A stretch of 64,000 nucleotides of DNA from an uncultured Acetatifactor sp. (GTDB taxonomy: Bacteria > Bacillota > Clostridia > Lachnospirales > Lachnospiraceae). Below the pieces are notes generated by a model. The model saw only the letters and a program-made list of their open reading frames with translations, ran no database searches and was not told the origin of the DNA. The position numbers and the translations under genes are program-made. Of the stretch, positions 8,938-50,817 are shown piece by piece. The first letter of the stretch is position 1. Each line of letters opens with the position of its first letter. Where the stretch lies: positions 14,829 to 78,828 of the forward strand of contig CANQUQ010000009.1 of the NCBI GenBank assembly GCA_947627115.1, written 5' to 3'.

Positions 8938-10134
8938 ATGAGGAACAGAGTGATAGCCGCAGTATGCACCGGCCTGATGGCGGTGTGTCTGGGATGCGTG
9001 GCGTCAGATCCCAGGACGAAGACGGCGGATGAAAATACAGAAATCGTTCTGAACGGCGGTGTCCGGGAGTTCTTGGAACGGATGTGTGAAGAGGATGCAA
9101 AGTGGGAAACGGTGTGGCCGGTCGCCGTGGAGGCCACATCTGTCCTGGAGGACGCGGAAGCCCTGAATAGGGAGACGCAGGAGGAAAGCGAATACGCCGA
9201 CCTGGCCATTGCCAATGTAGACCATTACGTGAACGTGCGCACGGAGCCGAACACGGACAGCGCGGTGGTTGGGAAGATCTACGGCGGTGCCGTGGCGCAG
9301 ATACTGGCCGTGGCAGGAGAGGAGAACGACTGGTTCCGCGTAGTCTCCGGAAACGTGGAGGGCTATATCAAGTCAGAGTATTTTCTGTACGGAGATGCGG
9401 CGGTGGCCGTGATCGACAATTATGTGACCCGCTACGCCACCGTTCTTGCGGACAGGCTGAATGTACGTGAACAGCCTGACATAGAGGCGGCAAGGGTAGG
9501 CTATATCGACAGCGGAGAGCGTGTGAAGGTCCTGGCGGACCAGGGGGAATGGCTGCAGGTGCAGTACACGGATCGCAAGACAGGGTATGTGGCCGCTGAG
9601 TACGTGACCGTCTCCGATGAATTTATTTATGCAAAGACCCTGGAGGAGGAAGCAAAAGAGCTGGCGGAAAAGAAGGCTCTGGAGGAGCGGCAGCATGTGT
9701 CGGAGGAGCAGGCGGCCGAAAACACTGCGGTAACGGTGGCCCCGCCGGATACCTCCTATGCCTCCAGCGGAGAACTTCGCCAGCAGATCGTCGATTATTC
9801 CATGCAGTTTCTGGGAAATAAATATATACACGGAGGACAGACCCTGGAGGGAGGAACGGACTGTTCGGGATTTACCAGTCTGATCTACAGGGAGTTCGGG
9901 TATTCTCTTGGCAGAACGCCCGCAAGCCAACTCTCCGATGCGGGGCGGGGCATCGACTACAGCGAGGCCCAGCCGGGCGATATCATCTGCTACGGTTCCG
10001 GCAGTACGTGCACCCATGTGGCATTGTATATCGGTAACGGACAGATCATCCATTCGGCCAACCCAAGAAAGGGCGTTGTCGTCATGCAGGCCGATTACGA
10101 TACGATCATCGGCGTGAGGAATGTGATCGACTAG
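8938..10134 (+). CDS. Secreted SH3b-SH3b-NlpC/P60 peptidoglycan endopeptidase
   Basis: Signal peptide; two SH3b-like segments (VNVRTEP, LNVREQP); catalytic DCSGF, HVALYIG, IIHS. Confidence 0.9.
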   Translation: MRNRVIAAVCTGLMAVCLGCVASDPRTKTADENTEIVLNGGVREFLERMCEEDAKWETVWPVAVEATSVLEDAEALNRETQEESEYADLAIANVDHYVNVRTEPNTDSAVVGKIYGGAVAQILAVAGEENDWFRVVSGNVEGYIKSEYFLYGDAAVAVIDNYVTRYATVLADRLNVREQPDIEAARVGYIDSGERVKVLADQGEWLQVQYTDRKTGYVAAEYVTVSDEFIYAKTLEEEAKELAEKKALEERQHVSEEQAAENTAVTVAPPDTSYASSGELRQQIVDYSMQFLGNKYIHGGQTLEGGTDCSGFTSLIYREFGYSLGRTPASQLSDAGRGIDYSEAQPGDIICYGSGSTCTHVALYIGNGQIIHSANPRKGVVVMQADYDTIIGVRNVID

Positions 10135-11420
10135 CGTGAAAGAATATCCGACCGTGACAGGATCACATCGCCAAAGATATCCCTGCTCTCAGCCTGCAGA
10201 TCCGCCAGGTGGAGCGGGACAGCGCCCCAATTCCAGATACCGTGCCTGAGAGCCTGCTCTTCGGTGTAATCCTCAAGAGGATATACGCCCACCAGCCGCA
10301 GGGGACCGCTCTTATAATGACAGACCAGAGGCAGTACGCCGCTTTTCTCTTCCGAGATGTATACCTGGTCTTCCGTCACATGGAAGGTGACCCAGGCCAT
10401 TTCCTCCAGCATGCTGGCAGCCTGCTTCTGTGTGGAGACATAGTTGCCCAGGGAGTAATAGCACAGAGTCCTGTGGCCGTCCTCCGATGTGATCCATTCC
10501 ACAGGCTGCGGAACATGCGGATGAGTACCGATGATCAGGTCCGCTCCGGCGGATGCCATCTCTTCCGCGAACCTCTTCTGGATGTCGGAGGGCGTGAGGA
10601 CATATTCTGTTCCCCAGTGCGGGCAGACAATGACAATGTCCGCCTCGGTCTTCGCTCTCCGGATATCCTCGACCACCTGGGGATTCAGAGCGGTAAAGTC
10701 GATGGCGCCGGATCCTTCGCTGTAACTGCAGAGCATATTCAGATGGCCCATCAGCGATCTGTCCAGAGTCCCCATATTGGGGCCGTAGGTATAATTCAGA
10801 ACGGCGAACCGGATGCCTTCTACGGTCAGGATCGGAATTTCCTCCGACGGCTCGTCGGATATGCCTGTCACCAGGATGTCGGGATACTGTTCCCAGAAGG
10901 ACGTGCAGTTCAGGATCCCCTTCAGGCCCTGATCGGCAGCATGGTTCGTGGCGTGCAGCACCACATTGAAGCCTGCGGCAGCAATGGCGTCGCCGACCTG
11001 AGTGGGGGAGTTGAAGTGGGGAAATCCCGAAAAGCCGAGTTCGTTGCCGGCAAAAATAGTTTCCTGATTGATGATGCGTATATCCGCAGCCTGGATATAA
11101 TCGGTTATGTTTTCAAATAAAAAGGAGTAATCGTAAGTGCCGTCCTGCTGCCTTCCGGTGTTGACGATGCCCATGTGCAGGAGATCGTCCCCCAGCGCCA
11201 TCAGGGTGATGTCGTATTCCGCAAAGGGCTCCTCCGTGGGGACGGGAGTCGGTTCGGGAGTGGGCGCTGCGGTGGGCGCAGGCGGCTGCGGAGCAAGCGT
11301 CGAAAGAACGGCGGCGGGCCTGGGATCCGCGCCTGACGCGCAGCCGCAGACGGCCGGGCACAGCAGAGTGAAGGACAGCAGTATGGACAGCAGCCGGCAT
11401 CCCATTTTTGCTCGTCTCAT
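10131..11420 (-). CDS. CapA/PgsA-family metallophosphoesterase-fold protein, exported, with Pro/Thr linker
   Basis: GDDLLH, NQE, ATNHAAD, HWGTEY, IGTHPHV, YSLGNY; signal peptide followed by PTAAPTPEPTP. Confidence 0.85.
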   Translation of the reverse strand: MRRAKMGCRLLSILLSFTLLCPAVCGCASGADPRPAAVLSTLAPQPPAPTAAPTPEPTPVPTEEPFAEYDITLMALGDDLLHMGIVNTGRQQDGTYDYSFLFENITDYIQAADIRIINQETIFAGNELGFSGFPHFNSPTQVGDAIAAAGFNVVLHATNHAADQGLKGILNCTSFWEQYPDILVTGISDEPSEEIPILTVEGIRFAVLNYTYGPNMGTLDRSLMGHLNMLCSYSEGSGAIDFTALNPQVVEDIRRAKTEADIVIVCPHWGTEYVLTPSDIQKRFAEEMASAGADLIIGTHPHVPQPVEWITSEDGHRTLCYYSLGNYVSTQKQAASMLEEMAWVTFHVTEDQVYISEEKSGVLPLVCHYKSGPLRLVGVYPLEDYTEEQALRHGIWNWGAVPLHLADLQAESRDIFGDVILSRSDILSR

Positions 11421-11564
11421 AGATTTCTCCTTTCAAATGCAGAACGGAAATAATTGTAATTATCATAACCCATTTTGTTTATTTGTCAACTTGTGGTTTT
11501 AGAAGGAATCTATTATAATGGTGTCATAGGTGTTGGCGGCAAGGTCAACGAGATGGAGGAGAGC

Positions 11565-13520
11565 ATGACAGATAAGAATCGGCAGAAAAGACCCTATCCG
11601 TTGGGAGCTCATGTGGAGGAGGACGGTATTCGTTTTGCCTTTGTTTCCAAAAAGATGTGCTGCGGCGTTCTGCTGTTCGACAGAAGGACGGGAAAAAAGA
11701 TCGGGACGGTCCCGTTCTCCGACGAGGACCGCGTGGGGAACATATACTGTAAGACGCTGAGCGACCTGGATGCCTCCCGGATCACATACCAGTTCTATGA
11801 GGAGGACAGGATCGTTCCGGACCGTCGTGCCAGGGTCTTTCCGGGAAAGGTCAAATACGGGAAGGAGAGACCGTGGGCGCAGATGCGTGCGGGCTTTCTG
11901 ACCGGGAGCTTTGACTGGGGCCAGGATAAATTTCCCAGGATCCCCTATGACCGGATGCTGGGTTATTGTATGCATGTGAGAGGCTTTACCAGGCATATCT
12001 CGTCCAACGTGAAGAACCGGGGCACCTTTGCGGGAATCGCGGAGAAGATCCCGTATTTAAAGGAGATCGGTGTGACGACGCTGGAGCTGCAGCCGGCCTA
12101 TGAGTTCACCGAGATGGCCGCCGACGAGGAACTGCTTCAGGATCGGCCCGGCGCAGCCGCCGTTGAGGATGTCAGAGGCCTGGGCGGGAAAAAGCTGAAT
12201 TACTGGGGCTATAAAAAGGGCTATTATTATGCGCCGAAGGCTGCTTATGCGGCCTCGGAGGACCCGACGGTGGAATTTAAGGCTCTGGTGAAGGCGCTTC
12301 ACGAGAACGGCATGGAGCTGATCATGCAGCTGTATTTTCCCAGGGACGTAAAAAGAAATGAGATTGCCGAGATAGTGCGCTTTTGGGTCCTGGAGTATCA
12401 TGTGGACGGTTTTCATCTGCTGGGCGAGGACATGCCCGCGGAGCTTCTGGCCGCGGACGAGGCGCTTGCGGATACAAAGCTGTGGTACTATCATTTTGAC
12501 ACGGACCATATATATGAGAGAGATGAACAGCCTCGCTATCCCCATGTGGCGGAGTACAACGATGCATGGTACTATGACATGCGGAGATTCCTGAAGGGGG
12601 ACGAGGGAATGCTGAACAGCGTGCTCTATCACATGCGCCACATTCCTGAAAAGGCCGGCAGTATTCATTACCTGACAAATTATTTCGGCTTCACCCTGGC
12701 GGATCTGGTGGCCTACGACTATAAGCACAACGAGGCGAACGGCGAGGACAACCGGGACGGGAATGACAGCAACTGCAGCTGGAACTGCGGAGAGGAGGGC
12801 CCTTCCCGCAGACAGAAGGTGAAGCAGCTCAGGACGAAACAGATCAAGAATGCGATGTGCCTTCTGCTGTTGTCCCAGTCGACGCCCCTGATCTTCATGG
12901 GCGATGAGTTCGGCAATACTCAGAGGGGAAACAATAATCCGTACTGTCAGGACAATTCCGTCACCTGGCTGGATTGGAACGCCGTGACCAAAAATGCCGA
13001 GCTGTTGGATTTCTGGAAACAGCTGGTACATTTTCGCCGGGAGCATCCGATCCTTCACCCTCGGAGGGAGTTAAAGCTGATGGACTATATGGCGTGCGGT
13101 TACCCCGATCTGTCCTACCACGGACAGAGTGCCTGGAGGCCTCAGACCGAGAGCTATTTCCGGTACATCGGTATTTTGCTCTGCGGCAGATACGCAGAGA
13201 CGGAGAACGGGGAGGACACCTTTTTATATCTCGCAGTGAACATGCATTGGGAAGACCATGAGCTGGCGCTGCCAAGACCGCCGAAAGGAATGGTGTGGAG
13301 GCAAGTGCTCTCCACGGCCCCGGATCAGAGCGAGCCGAAATGTGAACCGGACGACGGGAGCAACGATGCCTTCCGCAGGATCCCGTGCAGGAGCATCAGC
13401 GTGTATGTCAGCGCCCCGGCGGAGGAGAAGAGGACCGCGAAGAGAACAGAGGGAAAGGCGGCGCCCGCCGGGAACGAACGGACGGGGCAGGCGCCAAATG
13501 ATCGGGATGTGAGCAGATAA
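11565..13520 (+). CDS. GlgX/isoamylase-like GH13 protein lacking catalytic residues (probable pseudo-enzyme)
   Basis: GlgX hallmarks present (YPLGA, NYWGY, KHNEANGEDNRDG, SWNCGEEG, MGDEFG, GNNNPYCQDN); catalytic regions read DGFHLL, KLWYY, TNYFGFTL. Confidence 0.85.
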   Translation: MTDKNRQKRPYPLGAHVEEDGIRFAFVSKKMCCGVLLFDRRTGKKIGTVPFSDEDRVGNIYCKTLSDLDASRITYQFYEEDRIVPDRRARVFPGKVKYGKERPWAQMRAGFLTGSFDWGQDKFPRIPYDRMLGYCMHVRGFTRHISSNVKNRGTFAGIAEKIPYLKEIGVTTLELQPAYEFTEMAADEELLQDRPGAAAVEDVRGLGGKKLNYWGYKKGYYYAPKAAYAASEDPTVEFKALVKALHENGMELIMQLYFPRDVKRNEIAEIVRFWVLEYHVDGFHLLGEDMPAELLAADEALADTKLWYYHFDTDHIYERDEQPRYPHVAEYNDAWYYDMRRFLKGDEGMLNSVLYHMRHIPEKAGSIHYLTNYFGFTLADLVAYDYKHNEANGEDNRDGNDSNCSWNCGEEGPSRRQKVKQLRTKQIKNAMCLLLLSQSTPLIFMGDEFGNTQRGNNNPYCQDNSVTWLDWNAVTKNAELLDFWKQLVHFRREHPILHPRRELKLMDYMACGYPDLSYHGQSAWRPQTESYFRYIGILLCGRYAETENGEDTFLYLAVNMHWEDHELALPRPPKGMVWRQVLSTAPDQSEPKCEPDDGSNDAFRRIPCRSISVYVSAPAEEKRTAKRTEGKAAPAGNERTGQAPNDRDVSR

Positions 13521-14077
13521 TGGGCAAGGCCTGGAATCATTTTAAAACGGTAACTTATCATAAATATCTGGTGGCAAAGGGATGCTTCCGCGTGGGCCTG
13601 TACAGACAGGGGCTCCTGCACGATCTGTCCAAATACAGCCCTTCGGAATTTATTGCAGGGGCCAGATATTATCAGGGCGACAGGAGCCCGAACAACGCCG
13701 AGCGGGAAGACAAGGGCTATTCCGCGGCGTGGATGCATCACAAGGGCAGAAATCGGCACCACTATGAGTACTGGGTCGATTACAGTCTGAAGGATGAGCC
13801 CGGAATCATGGCGCCGGTGCCGATGCCGGACCGCTATATTGCGGAGATGGTCATGGACCGCATCGCCGCGAGCAAGGTCTATGAGGGCAGGGCATATACG
13901 GATGCTTCGCCGCTCCGGTATTACTACAGGGGCACCGACAGGGCGCCGATGCATCCGGACACCAGAAAAAAGCTGGAGAGGATCCTGAGGATGCTGGCCG
14001 AAAAAGGGGAAGAGGAAACATTTGCCTATATCCGGCGGGCGCTTGTCAGGGGGAAACGGTCTCCAAAGAAAAAATAG
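13520..14077 (+). CDS. DUF5662-like HD-type protein
   Basis: HK...LHDLSKYSPSEF...AWMHHKGRNRHH; start overlaps the upstream stop (TAATG). Confidence 0.7.
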   Translation: MGKAWNHFKTVTYHKYLVAKGCFRVGLYRQGLLHDLSKYSPSEFIAGARYYQGDRSPNNAEREDKGYSAAWMHHKGRNRHHYEYWVDYSLKDEPGIMAPVPMPDRYIAEMVMDRIAASKVYEGRAYTDASPLRYYYRGTDRAPMHPDTRKKLERILRMLAEKGEEETFAYIRRALVRGKRSPKKK

Positions 14078-14084
14078 TACCTGC

Positions 14085-14112
14085 ACACCGGGGGAACGGA
14101 CTGCATATGATA
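14085..14112 (+). promoter_or_regulatory. Putative sigmaK (late mother-cell) promoter
   Basis: ACA(14085-87)-16 nt-CATATGATA(14104-12) matches AC[AC]-N16-CATAnnnT. Confidence 0.6.
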
Positions 14113-14139
14113 CCTTAAAAATATAGTACGGTGGATCAT

Positions 14140-14472
14140 ATGAACTGTATTCTCCTATTACTTCTTCTGGGATGCTGCGGCGGCTCCGACAACGGCGGCT
14201 CCGGCTGCGGGTGCGGCAGCAGCAGATTTTCTGCGGACAACGGCTGCGGTGCGGTGAGCGCGCGGAACGACAGCTGCGGCTGTGACAATGTTTCGACGAG
14301 GAATAATGACTGTGGATGTCAGGGGAGCCCCGCGCCGGTAAATACAGGCTGCGGATGCGGTCAGGACGGTCAGTCCGGAAACGGCTGCGATAATGTCGGA
14401 CAGAACCCTCCCGGCTGGCAGACCTTTCCTGAGCTTTCGCGCAGAGACAATGACTGCGGCTGCAGCAATTGA
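14140..14472 (+). CDS. Small Cys/Gly/Asn/Asp-rich protein, candidate spore coat/exosporium protein
   Basis: 110 aa, 15 Cys, five CGC motifs; alternative GTG start at 14131. Confidence 0.65.
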   Translation: MNCILLLLLLGCCGGSDNGGSGCGCGSSRFSADNGCGAVSARNDSCGCDNVSTRNNDCGCQGSPAPVNTGCGCGQDGQSGNGCDNVGQNPPGWQTFPELSRRDNDCGCSN

Positions 14473-14579
14473 GGAAAACGGCATAAGGAAGGATAAGCGG
14501 ACGGTCCCTATGAAGGTTGACCGTCCATTTTATTTGTGATATATTTATAGGTGCAGTAAAAGCAGTAAGGAGGCTCCCT

Positions 14580-15644
14580 ATGGCGGCGTCGAAGGCAAAG
14601 GAAAAATATGTGGCATATGTGTCCACCTACACCCAGGGGGACAATCACGGGATAAAAATATATGATGTGGATCTAGAGCGGGGGCGTTTTACTGAAAAGG
14701 ATCAGGTGGAGATCACGAACTCCTCGTATGTGTCGATATCTCACAACAGAAGGTTCCTGTATTCCATCACGGATTTCGGCGTGGAATCCTACCGCGTACT
14801 GAAGGACGGAAATCTGGAGATGATCAATTTTGCGCCGATCAACGGTATGAGAGGCTGCTATCTGTCCACAGATTACACGGACAGTTATCTGTTCGTGGCA
14901 GGCTACCATGACGGCAAGCTCACGGTGCTTCGTCTGCGGGAGGACGGATCCGTGGGGGAGATCACCGACGAGATATTCCACAAGGGCCTGGGGACGGTGG
15001 CGGAGAGAAATTCACGGCCTCATATCAACTGTGCGAGAATAACGCACGACAATAAATATCTGTTGGTGGCGGATCAGGGAATGGACCATGTCAACGTGTA
15101 CCGGTTCGATGTGTCCCAGGGAAAGGTGGCGCTGGCGGATGTGATCCGAAGCGAGCTTGATTCGGCGCCCAGGCATGTGAAAATGTCCAGAGACGGAAGA
15201 TTTATCTATATCATTCACGAGTGGAAGTGTTATGTGGATGTGTACTCCTACGAGGAGAAGAACGGACAGCCTGTGTTTGAAAAGATCCAGACCGTGGACA
15301 CCGTGAAGCGCGAGAAGGGAAGCTCCTGTGCGGCGAGCGCCCTGACCTTCTCCGATGATTATAAGTATCTGCTCTGCACCAGCGCGGGCGACAATTCTGC
15401 GACTCTTTACAGTGTGGATCAGGAGACGGGAATGCTGAGCAGGATCTTCTGCCTGCCCGTCAGCGGGGAATACCCTAAGGACGCAAGCCTGTTCCCCAAC
15501 AATAAGTTCCTGGTCTCGCTGAACCACGAGTCCAATGATATGACGTTCTTTAAGGTGGACATAGAGAATGGCACGATGATCATGAACGGCCCGCCCGTCA
15601 AGGTGGATGTGCCGAACTGTATTATCATCCACAAGGTGTCGTAG
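14580..15644 (+). CDS. Lactonase family beta-propeller (6-phosphogluconolactonase-like)
   Basis: YVSTYT, VAGYHDG, RPHINC, SAPRHV, YPKDASL; AGGAGG RBS. Confidence 0.85.
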   Translation: MAASKAKEKYVAYVSTYTQGDNHGIKIYDVDLERGRFTEKDQVEITNSSYVSISHNRRFLYSITDFGVESYRVLKDGNLEMINFAPINGMRGCYLSTDYTDSYLFVAGYHDGKLTVLRLREDGSVGEITDEIFHKGLGTVAERNSRPHINCARITHDNKYLLVADQGMDHVNVYRFDVSQGKVALADVIRSELDSAPRHVKMSRDGRFIYIIHEWKCYVDVYSYEEKNGQPVFEKIQTVDTVKREKGSSCAASALTFSDDYKYLLCTSAGDNSATLYSVDQETGMLSRIFCLPVSGEYPKDASLFPNNKFLVSLNHESNDMTFFKVDIENGTMIMNGPPVKVDVPNCIIIHKVS

Positions 15645-15677
15645 AGAAAGGACATTGCGGTAGATATGCGGAAATAT

Positions 15678-15714
15678 AAAAGCTCCTGGGGATTCAGTCC
15701 CTCAGGAGCTTTTT
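15678..15714. terminator. Bidirectional intrinsic terminator between lactonase and aroC
   Basis: aaaagctcctg...caggagctttt inverted repeat; overlaps the aroC stop. Confidence 0.75.
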
Positions 15715-16809
15715 GCCGTAAAAATTTTCCAGGGAGTCCATCCGGGCCGACATGTTCACCATCATGGCGTCCAATACGGTCAGCGCCGTCATACATTCCA
15801 TGACGACCGCAGCCCTGGGTACGATGACCGGGTCATGGCGCCCCTTGATGTTGATGCGGATGCTCTGCCCCTGGCGGTCCACTGTCTGTTGGGTCAGATA
15901 GATGGAGGGGGTGGGCTTCACATATGCGCGCACCAGAACGGTGTCGCCGTCGCTGATGCCGCCCAGAATGCCGCCCGCGTGATTGCTGGTCTTGGTGATG
16001 CGGCCGTCCTTGGCGCAGAAGCCGTCGTTGTTCTCGCTTCCCTTTCGGGCGGAGACCTGCGTGCCGTCGCCGATTTCCACCGCTTTCACGGCACCGATGG
16101 ACATGATCGCCTTCGCCAGGCCGGCATCCAGCTTCTCAAATACGGGGTCGCCTATCCCTGCGGGAAGGCCCTCCACGATACATTCCATACAGCCGCCCAC
16201 GGAATCGGTGCTGTGCCTGATCTCCTCCAAATATTTTACCGCGGCCTCATTGGCCGCCCTGTCAGGCATGGCGGTGGGAGTGGAGAGGACCGCATCCCGG
16301 TCAAAGCGGCTCATGTCCGCCTCCACGGGACCGATGGAGCGGGTGTACGCCAGTATCTCCACACCGATCTGCTTCAGTATTTTTAAGGCCACGGCACCTG
16401 CGGCCACACGGCCGACGGTCTCCCTGCCGGAGGAACGTCCGCCGCCCCGGTAGTCGCGGAAGCCGTATTTTTGGTCAAAGGTGTAATCCGCATGTCCCGG
16501 ACGGTAATATGAGGCGATCTCGCTGTAGTCCTTGGATATCTGAGAGGTGTTGCGCACGATCATTGAAATAGGAGTGCCGGTGGTGCGCCCTTCGAATACG
16601 CCGGAAAGGATCTCTACGCTGTCATCTTCCTTTCGGGGAGTGGTGACGGAGCTCGTTCCGGGCTTGCGCCTGTCCAGATACTTCTGAATGTCGGATTCCT
16701 CCAGAGGAAGTCCGGCGGGGCATCCGTCGATGACGACGCCAAGCGCTTTTCCGTGGGATTCGCCCCAAGTCGTTATTTTAAAAATTGTTCCCAAGGTAGA
16801 ACCGGCCAT
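15694..16809 (-). CDS. aroC: Chorismate synthase
   Basis: TTWGESHG, RPGHAD, GGGRSSGRET, SNHAGGILGGIS, KPTPSI, GRHDP. Confidence 0.97.
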   Translation of the reverse strand: MAGSTLGTIFKITTWGESHGKALGVVIDGCPAGLPLEESDIQKYLDRRKPGTSSVTTPRKEDDSVEILSGVFEGRTTGTPISMIVRNTSQISKDYSEIASYYRPGHADYTFDQKYGFRDYRGGGRSSGRETVGRVAAGAVALKILKQIGVEILAYTRSIGPVEADMSRFDRDAVLSTPTAMPDRAANEAAVKYLEEIRHSTDSVGGCMECIVEGLPAGIGDPVFEKLDAGLAKAIMSIGAVKAVEIGDGTQVSARKGSENNDGFCAKDGRITKTSNHAGGILGGISDGDTVLVRAYVKPTPSIYLTQQTVDRQGQSIRINIKGRHDPVIVPRAAVVMECMTALTVLDAMMVNMSARMDSLENFYGKKLLRD

Positions 16810-28688: not shown

Positions 28689-29933
28689 ATGGCACAGATC
28701 AGACCATTTGCGGCATATCGTCCCGTCCCTGACATGGCGGACAGGATAGCGGCGCTGCCCTACGACGTGTACAACAGGCAGGAGGCGGAGCAGGCGGTAA
28801 AGGACAATCCGGACTCCTTCCTTGCAATAGACAGAGCGGAGACCGGCTTCGGCCCTGAGGTGGACACTTACGCGCCGGAGGTCTATCGGCGCGCGGACAG
28901 GCTGCTGCATGAGCGGATCGCGGCCGGACAGTTCCTCAGGGAGGAAAAGCCCTGCTTTTATCTGTATCAGCAGATCTTTCAGGGAAGGAGACAGACAGGG
29001 ATCGCAGCCTGCGCCTCCATAGACGATTATCTGGACAACACGATCAAAAAGCATGAGAATACCAGGGAGGACAAGGAGCTGGACCGCATCAGGCATGTGG
29101 ACGTGTGCAATATGCAGACGGGCCCCATCTTTCTCGCCTACCGCGCCAACAATGCTCTGCGAGAGATAGTGGCGCAGGCCCAGGAGCAGGAGCCGGTGTA
29201 TGATTTTGTGTCGGAGGACGGCGTGGGACATCGCGTATGGGTGATCGGGGACGAGGACGCGATCCGGCGCATACAGGAGGAATTTGCCCGGATCCCCGCG
29301 CTCTATATCGCGGACGGACATCATCGCTGCGCGTCCGCGGTCAAGGTTGGACTGATGCGGAGGGAAGCACATCCGGACTATACGGGACAGGAGGAATTCA
29401 ATTTCTTTCTCTCGGTCCTCTTTCCGGACGAGGAGCTGCACATTATGGATTACAACAGGGTGGTCCGCGACCTGAACGGATATACCGCTGTGGAATTTCT
29501 GGAAAAGATCGGGAGCAATTTCCGGGTGGAGGATCGGGGGACGAGCCCCTGCCGCCCTGAGAAAAAAGGCACCTTCGGCATGTTTCTGGAGGGCCGGTGG
29601 TATCTGCTGACGGCGAAGGACGCCATTCTCTCGGAGGATGCGGTGGAGGGGCTGGATGTCTCCCTGCTGCAGAAATATCTTCTGGAGCCGGTCCTCGGCA
29701 TCGGCGATCCCAGGACCGACAGGCGCATTGACTTTGTGGGCGGGATCAGAGGTCTGGAAGAGCTGGAGCGGAGAGTGCGGACAGATATGAAGGCAGCGTT
29801 CGCAATGTATCCCACCTCCATTGAGGAGCTGTTCCGGGTGGCGGATGCGGGCAGGCTCATGCCTCCCAAGTCCACCTGGTTCGAACCGAAGCTGAGGAGC
29901 GGACTGTTCCTGCATGATATCCGGCAGAGCTGA
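28689..29933 (+). CDS. DUF1015 family protein (ParB/Srx-like motif)
   Basis: IRPF..YRP, LPYDV, KHENTR, YIADGHHR, PPKSTWFEPKLRSGL. Confidence 0.85.
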   Translation: MAQIRPFAAYRPVPDMADRIAALPYDVYNRQEAEQAVKDNPDSFLAIDRAETGFGPEVDTYAPEVYRRADRLLHERIAAGQFLREEKPCFYLYQQIFQGRRQTGIAACASIDDYLDNTIKKHENTREDKELDRIRHVDVCNMQTGPIFLAYRANNALREIVAQAQEQEPVYDFVSEDGVGHRVWVIGDEDAIRRIQEEFARIPALYIADGHHRCASAVKVGLMRREAHPDYTGQEEFNFFLSVLFPDEELHIMDYNRVVRDLNGYTAVEFLEKIGSNFRVEDRGTSPCRPEKKGTFGMFLEGRWYLLTAKDAILSEDAVEGLDVSLLQKYLLEPVLGIGDPRTDRRIDFVGGIRGLEELERRVRTDMKAAFAMYPTSIEELFRVADAGRLMPPKSTWFEPKLRSGLFLHDIRQS

Positions 29934-29979
29934 CGCAAGAAGATGGGATTCCTGCGGCGGCAGGAAGATAGGAGAGAGC

Positions 29980-32409
29980 ATGACAAAGAAATTGTACAAG
30001 CTGATGAACTGGCCCCTGATAGAAGAAATCATATATTCGGAGAGCGACGATCCCCATGCCGTGCTGGGCCCTCACAGGGCGGGCAGCCAGACGCTGGTGC
30101 AGGCGTATTTCCCCGGCGCGAAAAAGGCGGCTTTGGTCTATGACAGGACGGGAGAGACCGTACAGATGGAAAAGGCTGACGACGACGGCTTTTTTGCGGT
30201 GCTCCTGCCGGGCACGGAGGCGCCGGCCTACCACTATCAGGTGCAGAGAGGCAAGAAGACCCTGACCTTCGGGGAGCCTTACCGCTTTGAACCCCGGATC
30301 ACCAAGAGCGACACGGAAAAGTTCAGGAACGGCATCCATTATACGGTCTACGAGAAGCTCGGAGCGCATCCCATGGAGCTGGAGGGCGTAAAGGGCACCT
30401 ATTTTGCCGTCTGGGCGCCGGGCGCCATGCGCGTCAGCGTGGTGGGGGATTTCAACGAGTGGGACGGACGGATGCATCAGATGCGCCGCCTGTGGGACTC
30501 AGGCATCTTTGAAATATTTGTTCCCGGTGCAAGGGCCGGAGAGAACTACAAATTTGAACTGAAGCTGAAAGACGGCCTTACCTACCTGAAGGCCGATCCT
30601 TACGGGAACGCGGCGCAGCTGCGCCCGGAGACGGCGTCCGTCATTGCGGATCTCAGGGGCTTTCACTGGGAGGATGAACGGTTCCTCCGGGACAGAGAAA
30701 AATTTCAGACCGGTGCGGTGCCGATGAGCGTCTACGAGCTGTACCTGGGCTCCTTCACGGCGGCGAGGAAGGGAGAGGCCCGCGCAAATTACCGCGATAT
30801 CGCGGATGCCCTGATCCCCTATGTGAAGGAGATGGGCTATACCCACGTGGAACTGATGCCGGTCATGGAACATCCCCTGGACGAATCCTGGGGATATCAG
30901 GTCATCGGGTATTATGCGCCCACATCCCGCTACGGTTCTCCGAAGGACTTCATGTATTTTGTGAACGAACTGCACAAAGCGGGCATCGGGGTGATCCTGG
31001 ACTGGGTGCCGGCGCATTTTCCCAGGGATGGATACGGACTTTCGGATTTTGACGGGACATGCCTGTACGAGCATCCGGATTCCCGCAGGGGAGGTTACAC
31101 GCCCTGGGGAACGCTGACGTACGATTACGGCAGACCGGAGGTCTCCAACTATCTGATTGCAAACGCCCTGTTCTGGGTGGAGAAGTACCATGCGGACGGG
31201 ATCCGGATGAATGCGGTGGCAAGCATGCTGTACCTGGATTACGGCAGGAGCGACGGACAGTGGACGCCCAACATCTACGGCGGCAGAGAGAATCTGGAAG
31301 CCATTGAGTTGATAAAGCACCTGAATTCCATCATGAAGAAGAGAAACGCCGGCGTGCTGACCGTCGCGGAGGAGAGCACGGCTTTCCCCGGAGTGACAGG
31401 CAATCTGGACGAAGGCGGGCTGGGCTTTGACCTGAAGTGGAACACGGGATTTGTAAATGACTATCTGCGCTATATCCAGTATGATCCCTATTTCCGGAGC
31501 CATCATCACGGTGAGTTGACCTTCAGCATGATATATGCGTACAGCGAAAAATTCATGCTGGCCTTCTCTCATGACGAAGTGGTACACGGGAAAGCGTCCC
31601 TGGCGGGAAAGATGCCCGGTGACAGGGGACAGAAGCTGGCAAATCTCCGCCTGACGTACGCTTACGCGATGGCGCATCCCGGTAAGAAGCTTCTGTTCAT
31701 GGGACAGGATCTTGGAGAGCCTGACGAATGGAATGAAAAACGCCTTGTGGAGTGGGAATTGGCCGAGGCGCCGGAGCATGCGGGAATAAGAGCGCTGGTG
31801 AGGGATCTGAATCACCTTTACCGCACCAGTCCGGAGCTGTACGAGCTGGACGATCGGGCTGAGGGCTTTGAGTGGATCAATAATATTTCCGGCAATGAGA
31901 ATTATCTGGTCTTCCTGCGCCATGGCGAAAAAGAAGAGCAGGTCCTGCTGGTGGCGGCCAATTTCTCCGGTATTTCCAGACAGATCACCGCGGGCGTGCC
32001 CTTTGACGGGAAATATAAGGAGATCTTCAACTCTGACGACGAAAAGTACGGCGGCAGCGGTGAGACGAACGGCCGGGTCAAAAAGGCCCGCCGGACAGAG
32101 TGGGATGACAGGCCGCAGTCCGTCACGGTGAAGCTGGCCCCGCTGTCTGTGAGCATACTGCGCTATATTCCTTATACGGAGGAAGAGCTGGAGCAGAAGC
32201 AAAAGCAGGAGAAGGCCCGCATGGAGAAGGCCGCGGCGGCAAGGAAGAAAGCTCAGGAGAAGGCCGCGGCGGCAAGGAAGAAAGCTCAGGAGGAGGCCGC
32301 GGCGGCAAGGAAGAAAGCCCAGGAGAAGACTGCGGCGGCAAAGAAGAAAGCTCAGGAGAAGACTGCGGCGGCAGGGAAGAGAACTCAGGAGAAGGCCGCA
32401 AAGAAATAG
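29980..32409 (+). CDS. glgB: 1,4-alpha-glucan branching enzyme homolog with nucleophile D->N and Lys/Ala repeat tail
   Basis: DPHAVLGPH, FAVWAP, SWGYQ, DWVPAHFP, DGIRMNAVASM, AEEST, SHDEVVHGK. Confidence 0.92.
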   Translation: MTKKLYKLMNWPLIEEIIYSESDDPHAVLGPHRAGSQTLVQAYFPGAKKAALVYDRTGETVQMEKADDDGFFAVLLPGTEAPAYHYQVQRGKKTLTFGEPYRFEPRITKSDTEKFRNGIHYTVYEKLGAHPMELEGVKGTYFAVWAPGAMRVSVVGDFNEWDGRMHQMRRLWDSGIFEIFVPGARAGENYKFELKLKDGLTYLKADPYGNAAQLRPETASVIADLRGFHWEDERFLRDREKFQTGAVPMSVYELYLGSFTAARKGEARANYRDIADALIPYVKEMGYTHVELMPVMEHPLDESWGYQVIGYYAPTSRYGSPKDFMYFVNELHKAGIGVILDWVPAHFPRDGYGLSDFDGTCLYEHPDSRRGGYTPWGTLTYDYGRPEVSNYLIANALFWVEKYHADGIRMNAVASMLYLDYGRSDGQWTPNIYGGRENLEAIELIKHLNSIMKKRNAGVLTVAEESTAFPGVTGNLDEGGLGFDLKWNTGFVNDYLRYIQYDPYFRSHHHGELTFSMIYAYSEKFMLAFSHDEVVHGKASLAGKMPGDRGQKLANLRLTYAYAMAHPGKKLLFMGQDLGEPDEWNEKRLVEWELAEAPEHAGIRALVRDLNHLYRTSPELYELDDRAEGFEWINNISGNENYLVFLRHGEKEEQVLLVAANFSGISRQITAGVPFDGKYKEIFNSDDEKYGGSGETNGRVKKARRTEWDDRPQSVTVKLAPLSVSILRYIPYTEEELEQKQKQEKARMEKAAAARKKAQEKAAAARKKAQEEAAAARKKAQEKTAAAKKKAQEKTAAAGKRTQEKAAKK
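32224..32406 (+). repeat. 33-bp in-frame tandem repeat, ~5.5 copies (EKAAAARKKAQ)
   Basis: Units at 32224, 32257, 32290, 32323, 32356 and a partial unit at 32389. Confidence 0.95.
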
Positions 32410-39068: not shown

Positions 39069-40796
39069 ATGAGTGAACTTCACTATAAGCTGGATCTGTT
39101 GAAAGCAATGAATCAGAAGCTTACAGAAAAAGAAAGAATGTACCGTATGGTCTGTGATTCGGCGGAGGGCGCATTTCTGTATTACTCGTTCGATAAGAGC
39201 AAGCTGACGGCCCTCGGACAGTGGCGGGAGTATTTTAGCTTTGAGATCGCGGAACTGTCGGATCTGCAGAAGATCCTTGACGCCGTGGAGGACGAGGGAA
39301 GTGAATCTCAGCTCAGGGAAGTACTCTACCTGGAGAAGAAGGGCGAGGAGCATGCCGTCACAGAGTGTTTCTTGAAGGAAAGGCATCTCTGGCTGCAGTT
39401 CCGCACAAGAGTCTACTACGATCATTCCGGCAGGCCAACAGACAAGGTAATCTACATTACCAATGTGACAAAGCAGCGCCACAAGGATGAGGAGCTGCTC
39501 TATATGGCCTATTACGATAGCCTGACGGGGCTGTATAACCGTAATTACTTTGTCCAGCTTCTCAGTGAATACATTAGGAAGGCCTCCGAGACCAACAGCA
39601 TCGTCAGCGTCATGAATATTGATATAGATGAGTTCAACAAGGTGAACGACGGTCTTGGCATTGTTATGGGAGACGAGCTGGTGCAGCAGTTCGGTATGCT
39701 GCTGAAGGATCTCTGCCAGGAGAATGTCATCGCCTGCCATCTGCACAGAGATGTATATTGCATCGCCATCTATGATCCGGCGGGAACAAGGACGGCGGAG
39801 CATATCTATAAAGCAATCAAGGCCAGGACAAAGCAGCCGTTCCTTTTGAGCAACGGTTCGGACGTTCAGATCACGGTGAGCGTCGGCGTCGCGGAATATC
39901 CGGAGGCTGCGCGGTCCGCGCTGGAGCTGATCAATTACGCCGAGCTGGTGGTGTTCCGGGTGAAGGCCATGGGGCGCAACGGCTTTCAGTACTTTAACGC
40001 GCCTATTCTGGATGATTTCCTGAATTCCGTGGAGGTGGAGAACAGACTGAGGCAGGCTGTCACCAATCGGGATTTTGAACTGTATTATCAGCCGCAGTAC
40101 TACACCGGCAATATGCGTCTCAGGGGCGTGGAAGCACTGATCCGCTGGCACAGCAGTGAGGGAGAGGTGCTGAGTCCGGACACATTCATTCCCGTGGCTG
40201 AAAAGAACGGCAGCATTGTGCCGATCGGCAAGTGGGTCGTGGAGGAAAGCGTCAGACAGTATTCTGTCTGGAGGCAGCAGTTCGGCTTCCCCTTTATCAT
40301 GTCCATCAATATATCGGCGCTTCAGTATAAAAAGGACGATTTCGTGGACTTTCTGCTGAACATCCTGAATAAATATCAGGTCAAGCCCTTTGAGATCGAG
40401 CTGGAGATCACGGAGAGCGTGCTGATAGACGACTTTGCCGCCGTCTCCGAAAAGCTGAAGCTGCTGCGCGGATACGGCATACGGATATCCCTGGATGATT
40501 TCGGTACGGGCTTCTCATCCCTGTCCTATCTGAAGAAGCTGCCCATCGACACCCTGAAAATAGACAAATCCTTTATTGATACGGTACTGACGGATTCCTC
40601 CACCAGAGTGATCACGGAATCCATACTGAATATGGTGAAGGCCCTGGGCTTTGAATCTATTGCGGAGGGCGTGGAGCAGGAACAGCAATACAAATATCTG
40701 CACTCTATCGGCTGTGATGTGCTTCAGGGCTATCTGTTCAGCAAGCCGCTTCCGGCGGCAGATTTGGAAAAGATGATCGTTGGCAGCCTTGAGTAA
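39069..40796 (+). CDS. GGDEF-EAL protein, degenerate GGDEF, probable c-di-GMP phosphodiesterase
   Basis: DSLTGLYNR; GGDEF position reads HRDVY; YYQPQ, EALIRW, ELEITES, DDFGTGFSSL, KIDKSF, AEGVE, QGYLF. Confidence 0.88.
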   Translation: MSELHYKLDLLKAMNQKLTEKERMYRMVCDSAEGAFLYYSFDKSKLTALGQWREYFSFEIAELSDLQKILDAVEDEGSESQLREVLYLEKKGEEHAVTECFLKERHLWLQFRTRVYYDHSGRPTDKVIYITNVTKQRHKDEELLYMAYYDSLTGLYNRNYFVQLLSEYIRKASETNSIVSVMNIDIDEFNKVNDGLGIVMGDELVQQFGMLLKDLCQENVIACHLHRDVYCIAIYDPAGTRTAEHIYKAIKARTKQPFLLSNGSDVQITVSVGVAEYPEAARSALELINYAELVVFRVKAMGRNGFQYFNAPILDDFLNSVEVENRLRQAVTNRDFELYYQPQYYTGNMRLRGVEALIRWHSSEGEVLSPDTFIPVAEKNGSIVPIGKWVVEESVRQYSVWRQQFGFPFIMSINISALQYKKDDFVDFLLNILNKYQVKPFEIELEITESVLIDDFAAVSEKLKLLRGYGIRISLDDFGTGFSSLSYLKKLPIDTLKIDKSFIDTVLTDSSTRVITESILNMVKALGFESIAEGVEQEQQYKYLHSIGCDVLQGYLFSKPLPAADLEKMIVGSLE

Positions 40797-47418: not shown

Positions 47419-48429
47419 ATGGCTTTATTTGAATCATATGAGAGACGTATTGACAAGATCAACGAAGTTCTGAACAGCTATGGCATCTCCTCTATCGAAG
47501 AAGCGGAGAAGATCACCAAGGACGCAGGCCTGGATGTATACGACCAGGTAAAGAAGATCCAGCCCATCTGTTTTGAGAATGCGTGCTGGGCGTACACCGT
47601 AGGCGCAGCCATCGCTATCAAGAAGGGTGCAAAGAAGGCCTCCGAAGCCGCTGCAGCCATCGGCGAGGGACTTCAGGCATTCTGTATTCCCGGCTCTGTG
47701 GCAGACACCCGTAAGGTGGGCTTAGGCCACGGCAATCTTGGCAAGATGCTGCTGGAGGAGGACACCGACTGCTTCTGCTTCCTGGCAGGACATGAGTCCT
47801 TCGCTGCCGCAGAAGGCGCTATCGGTATCGCCGAGAAGGCCAACAAGGTCCGCCAGAAGCCTCTGCGCGTGATCCTGAACGGCCTCGGCAAGGATGCCGC
47901 AAAGATCATTTCCCGTATCAACGGTTTTACCTTTGTGGAGACCGAATACGATCCCTATACCAACACGGTAAAAGAGATCGAGAAGATTCCCTATTCCACC
48001 GGACTTCGTTCCAAGGTGAACTGCTACGGTGCGAACTCCGTTCCTGAGGGCGTTGCCATCATGTGGAAGGAGAACGTGGACGTTTCCATCACCGGCAACT
48101 CCACCAACCCCACCAGATTCCAGCATCCCGTTGCAGGAACCTACAAGAAGGAGAGGACCGAGGCCGGCAAGAAGTACTTCTCCGTTGCCTCCGGCGGCGG
48201 TACAGGACGTACCCTGCATCCCGACAACATGGCTGCAGGCCCCGCTTCCTACGGCTTCACCGACACCCTAGGCCGTATGCATTCCGATGCGCAGTTCGCG
48301 GGTTCTTCCTCCGTGCCTGCACACGTTGAGATGATGGGCCTGATCGGTATGGGCAACAACCCCATGGTGGGCGCTACCGTGGCTGTGGCTGTATCCATTG
48401 AGGAAGCTGCTAAAGCAGGCAAATTCTAA
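47419..48429 (+). CDS. GGGtGRT-family protein (function unknown)
   Basis: ASGGGTGRTLHPD signature; FLAGHESFAAAEGA; TGNSTNPTRF. Confidence 0.9.
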   Translation: MALFESYERRIDKINEVLNSYGISSIEEAEKITKDAGLDVYDQVKKIQPICFENACWAYTVGAAIAIKKGAKKASEAAAAIGEGLQAFCIPGSVADTRKVGLGHGNLGKMLLEEDTDCFCFLAGHESFAAAEGAIGIAEKANKVRQKPLRVILNGLGKDAAKIISRINGFTFVETEYDPYTNTVKEIEKIPYSTGLRSKVNCYGANSVPEGVAIMWKENVDVSITGNSTNPTRFQHPVAGTYKKERTEAGKKYFSVASGGGTGRTLHPDNMAAGPASYGFTDTLGRMHSDAQFAGSSSVPAHVEMMGLIGMGNNPMVGATVAVAVSIEEAAKAGKF

Positions 48430-48466
48430 GAAACGATTACAGGTTCTGAGAAATAGCGTGAAACAA

Positions 48467-48510
48467 AGGGCTTCTGTTGACATGAATGGTCAGCGGGAGC
48501 CCTAAATTTT
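48467..48510 (+). terminator. Hairpin closing the GGGtGRT operon
   Basis: 15-bp stem with three G-U pairs (agggcttctgttgac / gtcagcgggagccct); weak T-tail. Confidence 0.6.
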
Positions 48511-48681
48511 GCCGCGCCGCACACAGGCGGCAAACAGGAAGCACACAAATATAGAGCATAAGAAAATTCAATCAGATAGCGATCAGCTGCAGTGTAAAAA
48601 TAATTGCAGAACAATGATAATTATGAGCAAAAAGAGTATGTTATGAAACGGCAGTATTGCAGAGCACATTTCACAAAATGG

Positions 48682-48709
48682 TTGACTTGAATATTGCCGT
48701 TTTATATTA
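48682..48709 (+). promoter_or_regulatory. Putative sigmaA promoter of the toxin-antitoxin pair
   Basis: TTGACT-16-TATTAT. Confidence 0.55.
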
Positions 48710-48745
48710 TGTATACAGGAGAGAATGTGATTGGAGGTATGGCGC

Positions 48746-49399
48746 ATGAGAGATGTGTATGAATATGCTAAATTTTTTATAAAGAACGGAGCCGATTCAG
48801 AGCCGAATACTTATGACGGAAATATGAAATTACAGAAATTGCTCGTGTTGGCAAATATGGCTTATATCTCACAATACCAAAAACCACTTTATAATGAGGA
48901 TATCCTTGCCTTTGAAAATGGGTTAGTCGTTGAAAAAGTCCGACTGAAATATAGAAATGACTATCATGCTTTCAAGTTGGAAAGCGAAAAATTTAATCCG
49001 AATTTTGATCAAGAAGAATATGAAATATTAAATGCTGTGTTAGGCGTTTATGGTCATTTGTCTGCAAAAGAGCTATCCGATTTAAATCATCAGTTTAATT
49101 CATGGAAACAGGCATATCGCGATGGAACATCGAGTGAAGGTTATCATGATAAAAAGAAATCAGTGGTGGATTTCAGCGCATTTCCGGATGATATTGAAGC
49201 TGTCGGAAGGGCTATAAAGGCATATAAGGAAACGAAAAAGAATGCCCTGCAGCATGAAGTGGTGAACGGAGTTACGTTTTATTATGATGATTTAGTGATG
49301 ACGGATGAACTGATAGCAGAGCTGGAAAAATTTTCCAAGGTATGTGAGGAAGATGCCTACAGCATTTGTCAAGAGGACGGAAGGCTGGTGATTTACTAA
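48746..49399 (+). CDS. Panacea (DUF4065/SocA/GepA-like) antitoxin
   Basis: NMKLQKLLVLA, LYNEDILAFENGLVV, LSAKELSDLNH..SW; GGAGG 8 nt before the ATG; AT-rich. Confidence 0.82.
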   Translation: MRDVYEYAKFFIKNGADSEPNTYDGNMKLQKLLVLANMAYISQYQKPLYNEDILAFENGLVVEKVRLKYRNDYHAFKLESEKFNPNFDQEEYEILNAVLGVYGHLSAKELSDLNHQFNSWKQAYRDGTSSEGYHDKKKSVVDFSAFPDDIEAVGRAIKAYKETKKNALQHEVVNGVTFYYDDLVMTDELIAELEKFSKVCEEDAYSICQEDGRLVIY

Positions 49400-49742
49400 T
49401 GCCGCAGACGTTTATTGCAGGTCAGGCATTTTGGGGCAGGATATGTTTTCCGGATGGAGATCTTCCGGCCTATGACAGACCTTATCTTGTTGTTGGCGTA
49501 GATGGGGATTATGTGGAAATTCTTACAGTATCTTCTGTGACAGGTAAAGAGTGGAAGCTGTCAATTCCGACGAATAGAGAGATTATCAATTATGATCCTC
49601 CGTTTCCCAAAAGAACATTTGTAAAATTAGATTCGCTGCAGAAAGTACATATAAATGATTTGTCTAATGTTATGATTGCAAAAAGGGAAGAACATTGAAT
49701 GCAGCGGAACTTTCAGAAATTATCAGTGCTATCATTAGGTAA
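49399..49742 (+). pseudogene. PemK/MazF-like toxin with an apparent 1-nt frameshift near the 3' end (in-frame stop 49698, -1-frame stop 49742)
   Basis: GQAFWGRICFPDG...RPYLVV...TFVKLDSL; TAATG coupling to the antitoxin; -1 frame continues KGRTLNAAELSEIISAIIR. Confidence 0.65.
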
Positions 49743-49766
49743 ATATTAAAAAATGAAGATGCCAAG

Positions 49767-50516
49767 ATGGGAGAACGGTTTTTGAATAAAAAAATTAAAA
49801 TAACTCTGGCAGCGCTCGCGGCAGTGTCCCTTCTGGCGATTGCGGCAGGACTTTTGGCAGGAGCGATCTATTTCGGCTTTTTTCATGTGAACGGGTTTGC
49901 CGCATCTCGCTATCCGGTGCGCGGTGTGGACGTGTCTCATTATCAGGGGAGGATCGACTGGCCGGTATTGTCCGGGCAGGACATTCAGTTCGCATACATC
50001 AAAGCTACAGAAGGAAGCTCTTACACGGACGAATGTTTTGCAGACAACTGGAAAGATGCGCGGCAGACGGGGCTTCGGGTCGGTGCCTATCATTTTTTCA
50101 GTTTTGACAGTACCGGTATCCAGCAGGCAGAGCATTTCATTGAAACGGTGGACGCTTTTGAGGAAATGCTGCCGCCTGTGGTGGATGTGGAATTTTACGG
50201 AAAAACAGAAGCAGACCCGCCCCAGGCGGAGGAGGTGGCGGCACAGCTGCAGGTCTATCTTGACACGGTGGAGGAGGCGTATGGGCTTAAGCCCATGATC
50301 TATGCCACTTACGATACGTGGGAGCTCTATATCAAGGACAGATTTGAAGAATATCCTCTGTGGATACGGGACATCTGGCATAGACCGGACAAGAGTGTCC
50401 CGTGGACATTCTGGCAGTATACCAACCGCGGCCGCCTGCGGGGATTTTCGGGCGATGAGGAACCTTATGTGGATCTGGATGTATATGGCGGCAGCAAAGA
50501 ATTAATTATGAACTAG
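49767..50516 (+). CDS. GH25 muramidase with N-terminal membrane anchor
   Basis: VDVSHYQG, YIKATEG, GAYHFF, PPVVDVE, FWQYT, VDLD; alternative TTG start at 49782. Confidence 0.92.
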   Translation: MGERFLNKKIKITLAALAAVSLLAIAAGLLAGAIYFGFFHVNGFAASRYPVRGVDVSHYQGRIDWPVLSGQDIQFAYIKATEGSSYTDECFADNWKDARQTGLRVGAYHFFSFDSTGIQQAEHFIETVDAFEEMLPPVVDVEFYGKTEADPPQAEEVAAQLQVYLDTVEEAYGLKPMIYATYDTWELYIKDRFEEYPLWIRDIWHRPDKSVPWTFWQYTNRGRLRGFSGDEEPYVDLDVYGGSKELIMN

Positions 50517-50817
50517 ATATGAAACAGATTTTGCAAATTGGATTATAAATAATTATCTTTTGTTGTAATAGAGACAGTGAGATGAGGCGAGAAAGGGGAT
50601 TACATGAAGAAGTATATCATTACTTATGCCTGTAGTTATGTTAATCAGTTTCGTGTTTTTACCGATAGGCATGTCAAAACATATGCCCATACAGCCGAAG
50701 GAAACATTTACTCAGATATGGTCTCTTGTTTCACTGGCTATGCGTTAATTTGCAAGTGGCAGGAGGAGTAATGGTTTATAGCCTCCGAAAATTCGGACGC
50801 GAAAGGAGAAATATCCC

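Follow-up and report, generated by a model that had tools for sequence, protein, structure and literature searches.

What keeps a gene for a glycogen debranching enzyme intact across a bacterial family when the residues that carry out debranching are gone? The question is raised by an open reading frame (ORF) at positions 11565-13520 (+) of a 64,000-nucleotide stretch of DNA from an uncultured Acetatifactor sp. (GenBank contig CANQUQ010000009.1), the whole of which is referred to here as the window. Based on the letters of the DNA, the original prediction was that this ORF encodes a full-length homolog of GlgX and the isoamylases that has lost its catalytic motifs and is maintained as a pseudo-enzyme rather than decaying. 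Both parts of that prediction were borne out, the first by alignment to E. coli K-12 GlgX and the second by the state of the gene in its relatives. The GlgX-like protein is very probably a non-catalytic pseudo-enzyme kept by selection, and its loss of the active site is a trait that defines a large family in the Lachnospiraceae, which the original prediction had missed. It had also missed that the former catalytic positions are unconstrained across this family, and that the one conserved gene partner encodes a DUF5662 protein and has no glycogen function assigned to it.

Loss of the catalytic residues and of domain B

Alignment of the 651-residue product against E. coli GlgX revealed an identity of 29% over about 590 residues. 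All three members of the catalytic triad are replaced, with D336 changed to Leu, E371 to Tyr and D443 to Phe. Further changes are found around them, namely D261 to Gln, H266 to Arg, R334 to His and H442 to Tyr. The triad, the region I His and the region II Arg are therefore all absent from the GlgX-like protein. The GH13 regions themselves can still be recognized as remnants. Region I reads QLYFPR (12327-12344), covering the D261 and H266 replacements, and region II reads VDGFHLLG (12402-12425), in which the former Arg is His and the former nucleophile is Leu. Region III reads KLWYYHFD (12477-12500) with Tyr in place of the acid/base Glu, and region IV reads TNYFGFTL (12675-12698), where the Tyr-Phe pair at 12681-12686 stands in place of H442 and D443. 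Every motif position given in the original prediction was exact, and the GlgX-specific segments that it quoted are present.

The segment between regions I and II, which had been predicted to be shortened, has only 17 residues compared to 61 in E. coli GlgX. It consists of a short linker and a helix in place of domain B (12345-12401). In the AlphaFold2 model, strand 3 (residues 251-258) is followed directly by a helix at residues 264-278 and then by strand 4 (residues 282-287). As strand 3 leads straight into helix 3, the protein has no domain B. The protein scores 300.7 bits against TIGR02100 (glgX_debranch) and fails the equivalog cutoff of 640.9 bits, although TIGR02100 is its best NCBIfam match. 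No debranching activity is predicted for such a sequence, and the loss of both the catalytic residues and domain B would make cleavage of alpha-1,6 branches by the GH13 mechanism impossible.

Conservation and selection across the family

Among 5.8 billion proteins searched, 120 clusters were found that share 61-80% identity with the GlgX-like protein. All 120 have Gln for D261, Tyr for H442 and no Asp at the nucleophile position, and the replacement motifs QFYFP, VDGFHL[LM]G, KLWYY.FD and NY[YSF]GFTL are near-invariant among them (dots stand for any residue). A second search, seeded with a member from Hungatella, yielded 120 more clusters with the same losses. In an exhaustive HMMER search over 1.84 billion cluster representatives, the best 150 matches (405-1111 bits) all have a spacer of 16-17 residues and no nucleophile Asp, so that the family comprises at least 150 clusters at 50% identity. 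The substitutions are not due to chance, because the same ones recur in every homolog examined.

A genome scan with one genome per species gave 80 loci at 40-80% identity. The ORF is intact in all 80, and both the nucleophile and domain B are missing in each of them. By name or by synteny all these loci belong to the Lachnospiraceae, including Acetatifactor, Lachnoclostridium, Enterocloster, Hungatella, Eisenbergiella, Merdimonas and others. Five records of metagenome-assembled genomes titled Muribaculum, Bacteroidaceae, Bacteroidales, Bulleidia and Alistipes (L009, L010, L048, L067 and L069) carry the gene with Lachnospiraceae synteny, and these bins are probably contaminated or mislabelled.

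The ratio of nonsynonymous to synonymous substitution rates (dN/dS) is 0.05-0.18 (Nei-Gojobori method, 21 pairs with more than 80% amino-acid identity), and the orthologs likewise have no catalytic nucleophile. Taken together with the 80 intact ORFs and the trait shared by at least 150 clusters, this supports the claim that the protein is a maintained pseudo-enzyme and not a gene in decay. It is a homolog of an enzyme in which the catalytic residues are gone, no conserved replacement is present and purifying selection acts, as is generally expected of a pseudo-enzyme.

Among the 150 representatives, the old catalytic positions vary as much as an average position does. Entropy is 3.2-3.5 bits at the nucleophile, acid/base and region I His positions and 2.6 bits at D443, compared to a core median of 2.58 bits. 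At the other end, 38 positions are at least 97% conserved, of which 34 are identical to E. coli GlgX; the highly conserved positions include NYWGY, D281-G282, NEANGE.NRDG, N.G.EG, GDE and GN.N....D. Eight carboxylates are among the positions conserved to at least 97%, and all eight are common to active GlgX. A relocated catalytic carboxylate, the possibility raised against the original prediction, was sought at the sequence level among the 150 representatives, and no invariant acid specific to the family was found. Since no family-specific carboxylate is conserved, the family is, judged from its sequences, almost certainly not a hydrolase.

Some branches keep the region III Glu and a His-Asp or His-Asn in region IV. 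As these residues are retained in some branches, the alignments suggest that the remaining site drifted only after the nucleophile and domain B had been lost. We propose the following course for the family. The ancestor would have been a debranching enzyme of the GlgX/isoamylase type (GH13_11-like). The founding changes would be that its nucleophile Asp was lost and domain B deleted, and the other polar residues of the -1 subsite would have drifted later. The three-domain isoamylase scaffold and the GlgX loops past strands 7 and 8 are kept, and strong purifying selection acts on the protein throughout the Lachnospiraceae.

Gene and overall structure

The longer open frame begins at 11475. The probable start of translation is the ATG at 11565, which is preceded by a Shine-Dalgarno-like GGAGG at 11555-11559 (+), 5 nt upstream, and the N-termini of the homologs agree with this start. 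A contig from an independent run (X1) spans 10000-15800 with 10 substitutions and no gaps, and this agreement with the window excludes an artefact of assembly. A search of Rfam found no element near the gene. The N-terminal sequence shows no evident signal peptide, and the protein is therefore probably cytoplasmic.

By sequence, the closest solved structures are plant ISA1, Chlamydomonas ISA1 (CrISA1), Streptomyces venezuelae GlgX, Sulfolobus TreX and E. coli GlgX. The bit scores in the PDB sequence search are 225-234 for ISA1, 218 for bacterial GlgX and 113-129 for ISA2. The AlphaFold2 model, computed from an alignment of 129 sequences, has a mean predicted local distance difference test score (pLDDT) of 83.8 and a predicted template modelling score (pTM) of 0.87. 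In the model, a beta-sandwich at the N-terminus precedes the eight strands of the barrel, and another beta domain forms the C-terminus. Foldseek ranked rice and Arabidopsis ISA1, CrISA1, S. venezuelae GlgX, TreX and E. coli GlgX at the top, with E-values from 1e-38 to 1e-47 and template modelling (TM) scores of about 0.7-0.77, and ISA2 appeared further down the ranking.

The N-terminal beta-sandwich may correspond to the CBM48-like domain of GlgX and isoamylases (residues about 9-100, 11589-11864), with modelled strands at residues 14-84; PF02922 is precomputed for distant members of the family. Two GlgX-type loops follow the barrel strands. The loop past strand 7 (12723-12800) contains KHNEANGEDNRDG (12723-12761) and SWNCGEEG (12777-12800), and is near-invariant family-wide and identical in E. 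coli GlgX. The loop past strand 8, GDEFGNTQRGNNNPYCQDN (12900-12956), is also near-invariant. These two most conserved loops are the parts of the core modelled with the lowest confidence, having pLDDT values of 53-70 at residues 380-410 and below 50 at residues 446-459 (40-70 over the two together); the low-confidence stretches map to 12705-12794 and 12900-12941. Such loops would fit a conformation that is set by a ligand or a partner. The C-terminal tail (residues 617-651, 13413-13517) is charged and of low complexity, disordered in the model, and falls at the unconserved end of the family consensus.

Proposed mode of action

What, then, could the protein do? Its mode of action would most likely be binding, either to an alpha-glucan (glycogen) chain, to a protein partner, or to both. 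Taken as a whole, the explanation that it is a GlgX-derived cytoplasmic pseudo-enzyme working by binding stands, in our view, at even odds of being right. A glycogen-binding regulatory or targeting subunit is the form that we favour, tentatively and at somewhat less than an even chance. In active members of the GH13 family, the Tyr of NYWGY and the loops past strands 7 and 8 line the glucan cleft. The glycogen-binding subunit is preferred because this Tyr and these loops are retained, the protein lacks an evident signal peptide and glycogen is made by the host family. The original prediction had suggested an ISA2-like subunit or a glucan-binding scaffold, and by analogy with plant ISA2 a glucan-binding or regulatory role is plausible. 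The subunit could serve an active GlgX paralog, as ISA2 serves ISA1, and its partner could equally be the protein of the DUF5662 gene that lies directly downstream and appears to be co-transcribed with it.

Several observations weigh against the proposed mode of action. The -1 subsite has lost all the polar residues with which active GH13 enzymes contact the sugar, the contribution of domain B to the cleft is absent, and Pfam CBM_48 is not detected in the GlgX-like protein at E<=0.1. The pairing with DUF5662 is missing in about 22 loci, among them the whole Enterocloster/Hungatella branch. In addition, none of the 81 loci has a glycogen gene or a GH13 debranching paralog adjacent to the gene, and none has a glg operon within 10 kb on either side. 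What is conserved around the gene is a set of housekeeping genes. In the window and its relatives this set comprises gltX, a UvrD-type helicase, an NlpC/P60 protein, PGA_cap, a lactonase and aroC, and in another branch, as read from the sequences, an extracytoplasmic function (ECF)-sigma-like gene, a dGTPase, dnaG and rpoD. A search for an active GH13/GlgX paralog in the window and within 10 kb on either side of the 80 homologous loci found none, and only GlgB was present, in five loci.

The glgB gene of the window lies at 29914-32409, 16 kb downstream of the GlgX-like gene. In L010, L048, L059 and L080 a glgB is found less than 10 kb away. Over these five lineages the distance is 5-16 kb, a loose regional link to glycogen metabolism. 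For an active paralog beside the GlgX-like copy, the literature provides a lead only: two glgX genes are reported from Butyrivibrio hungatei, glgX1 (726 aa, including CBM48) and glgX2 (648 aa) (PMC5716241), and two homologs of glgX from Blautia obeum (PMC10395257).

The DUF5662 partner

The DUF5662 gene (13520-14077, +) encodes 185 residues that match Pfam PF18907 with E=4.8e-39, and base 13520 is both the first of its ATG and the last of the GlgX-like stop codon. Among the 79 loci with room downstream, about 56 have DUF5662 immediately downstream on the same strand, often with a stop/start overlap of 1 or 4 bases. It is the sole partner that persists through rearrangements of the neighbourhood, and the pairing includes branches at 41-46% identity in which the other neighbours are all different. 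Contigs from one metatranscriptome run match the window at 99% identity or more at 11451-11917, 12102-12382, 13103-13281 and 13295-13720. The last of these spans the junction between the GlgX-like stop and the DUF5662 start. The two genes thus appear to be co-transcribed, with carry-over of DNA into the RNA library remaining possible. A simple scan found no clear promoter or terminator between them.

The DUF5662 protein is conserved at 70-87% identity, with invariant H7, H14, H34-D35, H73/H74, H80/H81 and D113. Its AlphaFold2 model is all-helical (185 residues, pLDDT 86.8). The protein has no PDB sequence match, no NCBIfam match and no second Pfam family above noise, and the Foldseek search gave nothing significant, the best hits being an HD-type small alarmone hydrolase (E=1.3) and HD-GYP proteins (E about 4-5). 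It matches the phage family phrog_20637 (PHROG, function unassigned), and some NCBI records mislabel it 'catalase'. The arrangement of His and Asp resembles that of metal-binding HD-type hydrolases, which we take as a lead from the sequence.

These features bring in the first and main alternative, in which the GlgX-like protein would be a recognition or scaffold subunit and DUF5662 would do the chemistry, perhaps as a metal-dependent hydrolase, on a target that need not be glycogen. The persistent pairing with short overlaps down to the 41-46% branches, the RNA contig across the gene junction, and the strong conservation with His and Asp residues that recall HD-type hydrolases all speak for it. 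However, the fold and sequence searches gave no significant match and Pfam no HD match, about 22 loci are unpaired, and the adjacency could be synteny inherited within one family. We consider this alternative unlikely, while retaining DUF5662 as one of the candidate partners of a binding subunit.

A small ORF just past DUF5662 (14131-14472, +) encodes a hydrophobic N-terminus followed by Cys/Gly/Asn-rich repeats of the CGCG type. It has no Pfam or NCBIfam match, and ORFs of this kind are also found one or two genes downstream in at least 14 loci (e.g. L040 12406-12801 and L048 9142-9444).

Alternative explanations

A second alternative is that the protein is a neo-functionalised enzyme. It would catalyse a different reaction, or act on a different substrate, either with other residues of its GH13 barrel or at another site. 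Strong purifying selection is what such an enzyme would experience, the near-invariant acids E394, D398, E411, D447, E448 and D463 are located on loops at the C-terminal face of the barrel, and some subclades keep the region III Glu and the region IV His-Asp. These acids, however, are equally conserved in normal GlgX, where they are non-catalytic, and the positions of the old catalytic cleft are among the more variable columns family-wide. With the old active-site columns unconstrained and no new conserved acid, this alternative is less likely than the first, and we regard it as improbable. In addition, rice ISA2 stayed inactive when its triad was restored (PMC12218847), indicating that a scaffold of this kind can be inert.

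A further version joins the two proteins in a reaction on glycogen itself: the dead GlgX would be the glucan-targeting subunit, and DUF5662, rich in His and Asp, would be a hydrolase, probably metal-dependent, that modifies glycogen without debranching it. It might, for example, take off covalent phosphate or some other substituent, making the pair a bacterial counterpart of the glucan phosphatases of the laforin/SEX4 type. We judge this very unlikely; if true, the pair would control the structure or turnover of glycogen granules in gut Lachnospiraceae. Finally, nothing but the loss of the catalytic residues speaks for a pseudogene in decay or for an error of assembly or sequencing, and these are excluded by the 80 intact ORFs, the low dN/dS, the agreement of independent DNA runs and the presence of RNA contigs.

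Genomic context

The GlgB protein of the window (29914-32409, +) has 831 residues and comprises GlgB_N, CBM48, alpha-amylase and C-terminal domains, ending in a low-complexity repeat of the KKAQEKAAAAR type. Its nucleophile position is occupied by Asn (codon AAT, 31210-31212), the segment reading YHADGIRMNAVASMLY compared to RVDAV in E. coli. AEES retains its Glu and SHDE its Asp, and the homologs in L010, L048 and L080 (54-70% identity) have the nucleophile Asp. The AAT codon is matched by contigs from three independent runs, two of DNA and one of RNA; since these agree, the Asn is real in this population. From its sequence, GlgB may have been inactivated too, as the second glycogen enzyme of this species. 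Directly upstream, and overlapping glgB, is a DUF1015 gene (28689-29933, +), a pairing that is found in at least three lineages (also L010 10071-11327 and L048 14838-16094).

The stretch at about 48000-53000 has a G+C content of 0.44-0.49 compared to about 0.55 elsewhere. It carries a SocA/Panacea antitoxin-like gene, a GH25 lysozyme, a helix-turn-helix regulator and a 747-aa protein that has a lipoprotein-like N-terminus and no Pfam match, and it may have been acquired as an island or be what remains of a prophage. The window also encodes a GGDEF-EAL protein of cyclic di-GMP turnover at 39069-40796 (+). S. venezuelae GlgX is a cyclic di-GMP receptor according to the title of PDB entry 7u3a.

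Annotation and significance

Neither full-text literature searches nor reviews described DUF5662 or a family of inactive GlgX proteins in bacteria, and the GlgX-like family is apparently undescribed. Its members are named 'alpha-amylase family glycosyl hydrolase', 'glycogen debranching protein' or 'glycogen operon protein' in the databases. As members of a large dead family carry the names of active enzymes, debranching capacity is overstated by counts of GH13 or glgX in gut metagenomes and probably by statements that a species has two glgX homologs. The family sits in one of the dominant bacterial families of the gut. The pairing, for its part, ties DUF5662, a domain without an assigned function, to a defined protein partner.

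Relation to other enzymes and pseudo-enzymes

The closest relatives are GlgX, TreX and ISA1 (GH13_11; TIGR02100), with which the GlgX-like protein shares the beta-sandwich, the (beta/alpha)8 barrel and the C-terminal beta domain in the same order. It is identical to E. coli GlgX in the motifs NYWGY, NEANGE.NRDG, SWNCG.EG and GDE.G..Q.GNNN.YCQDN. Unlike these enzymes, it has no nucleophile Asp, acid/base Glu, transition-state Asp, region I His or region II Arg; domain B is deleted, the TIGR02100 score is less than half of the cutoff and the gene stands outside a glg operon. The family is clearly derived from GlgX.

Loss of activity in a GH13 barrel has occurred elsewhere. The heavy chains 4F2hc and rBAT of eukaryotic amino-acid transporters are GH13 barrels without catalytic residues that serve purely as protein partners, and 4F2hc additionally has no domain B. 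The 4F2hc ectodomain thus resembles the GlgX-like protein in having lost both. In contrast to the latter, 4F2hc and rBAT are extracellular, membrane-anchored and eukaryotic with an unrelated function, and they share only the GH13 fold, with no specific sequence relationship beyond it. Within the same phylum and pathway, a dead paralog is exemplified by GlgD of Firmicutes, a non-catalytic paralog of the ADP-glucose pyrophosphorylase GlgC that acts as a regulatory subunit (PMC10395257). GlgD differs in fold and enzyme family, and glgD adjoins glgC whereas the GlgX-like gene adjoins no glg gene.

Plant ISA2 offers a parallel in kind, being an isoamylase-fold protein that lost the triad and was kept as a functional, non-enzymatic partner. 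In rice, the triad positions of OsISA2 are occupied by I458, D495 and S566, and the protein has no activity itself but enhances ISA1 (PMC12218847). The two differ in their setting, which for the GlgX-like protein is a bacterial cytoplasm that makes glycogen and not starch, and in their descent. The GlgX-like protein scores 113-129 bits to ISA2 compared to 225-234 to ISA1, which rules out orthology to ISA2. As the ISA2 scores are well below those of both ISA1 and GlgX, catalytic loss in the bacterial family is, on these comparisons, independent of ISA2 and convergent. The family would thus be a bacterial parallel to ISA2, an isoamylase turned non-catalytic and retained for a very long time, and would make the function of dead debranching enzymes accessible to experiment in bacteria.

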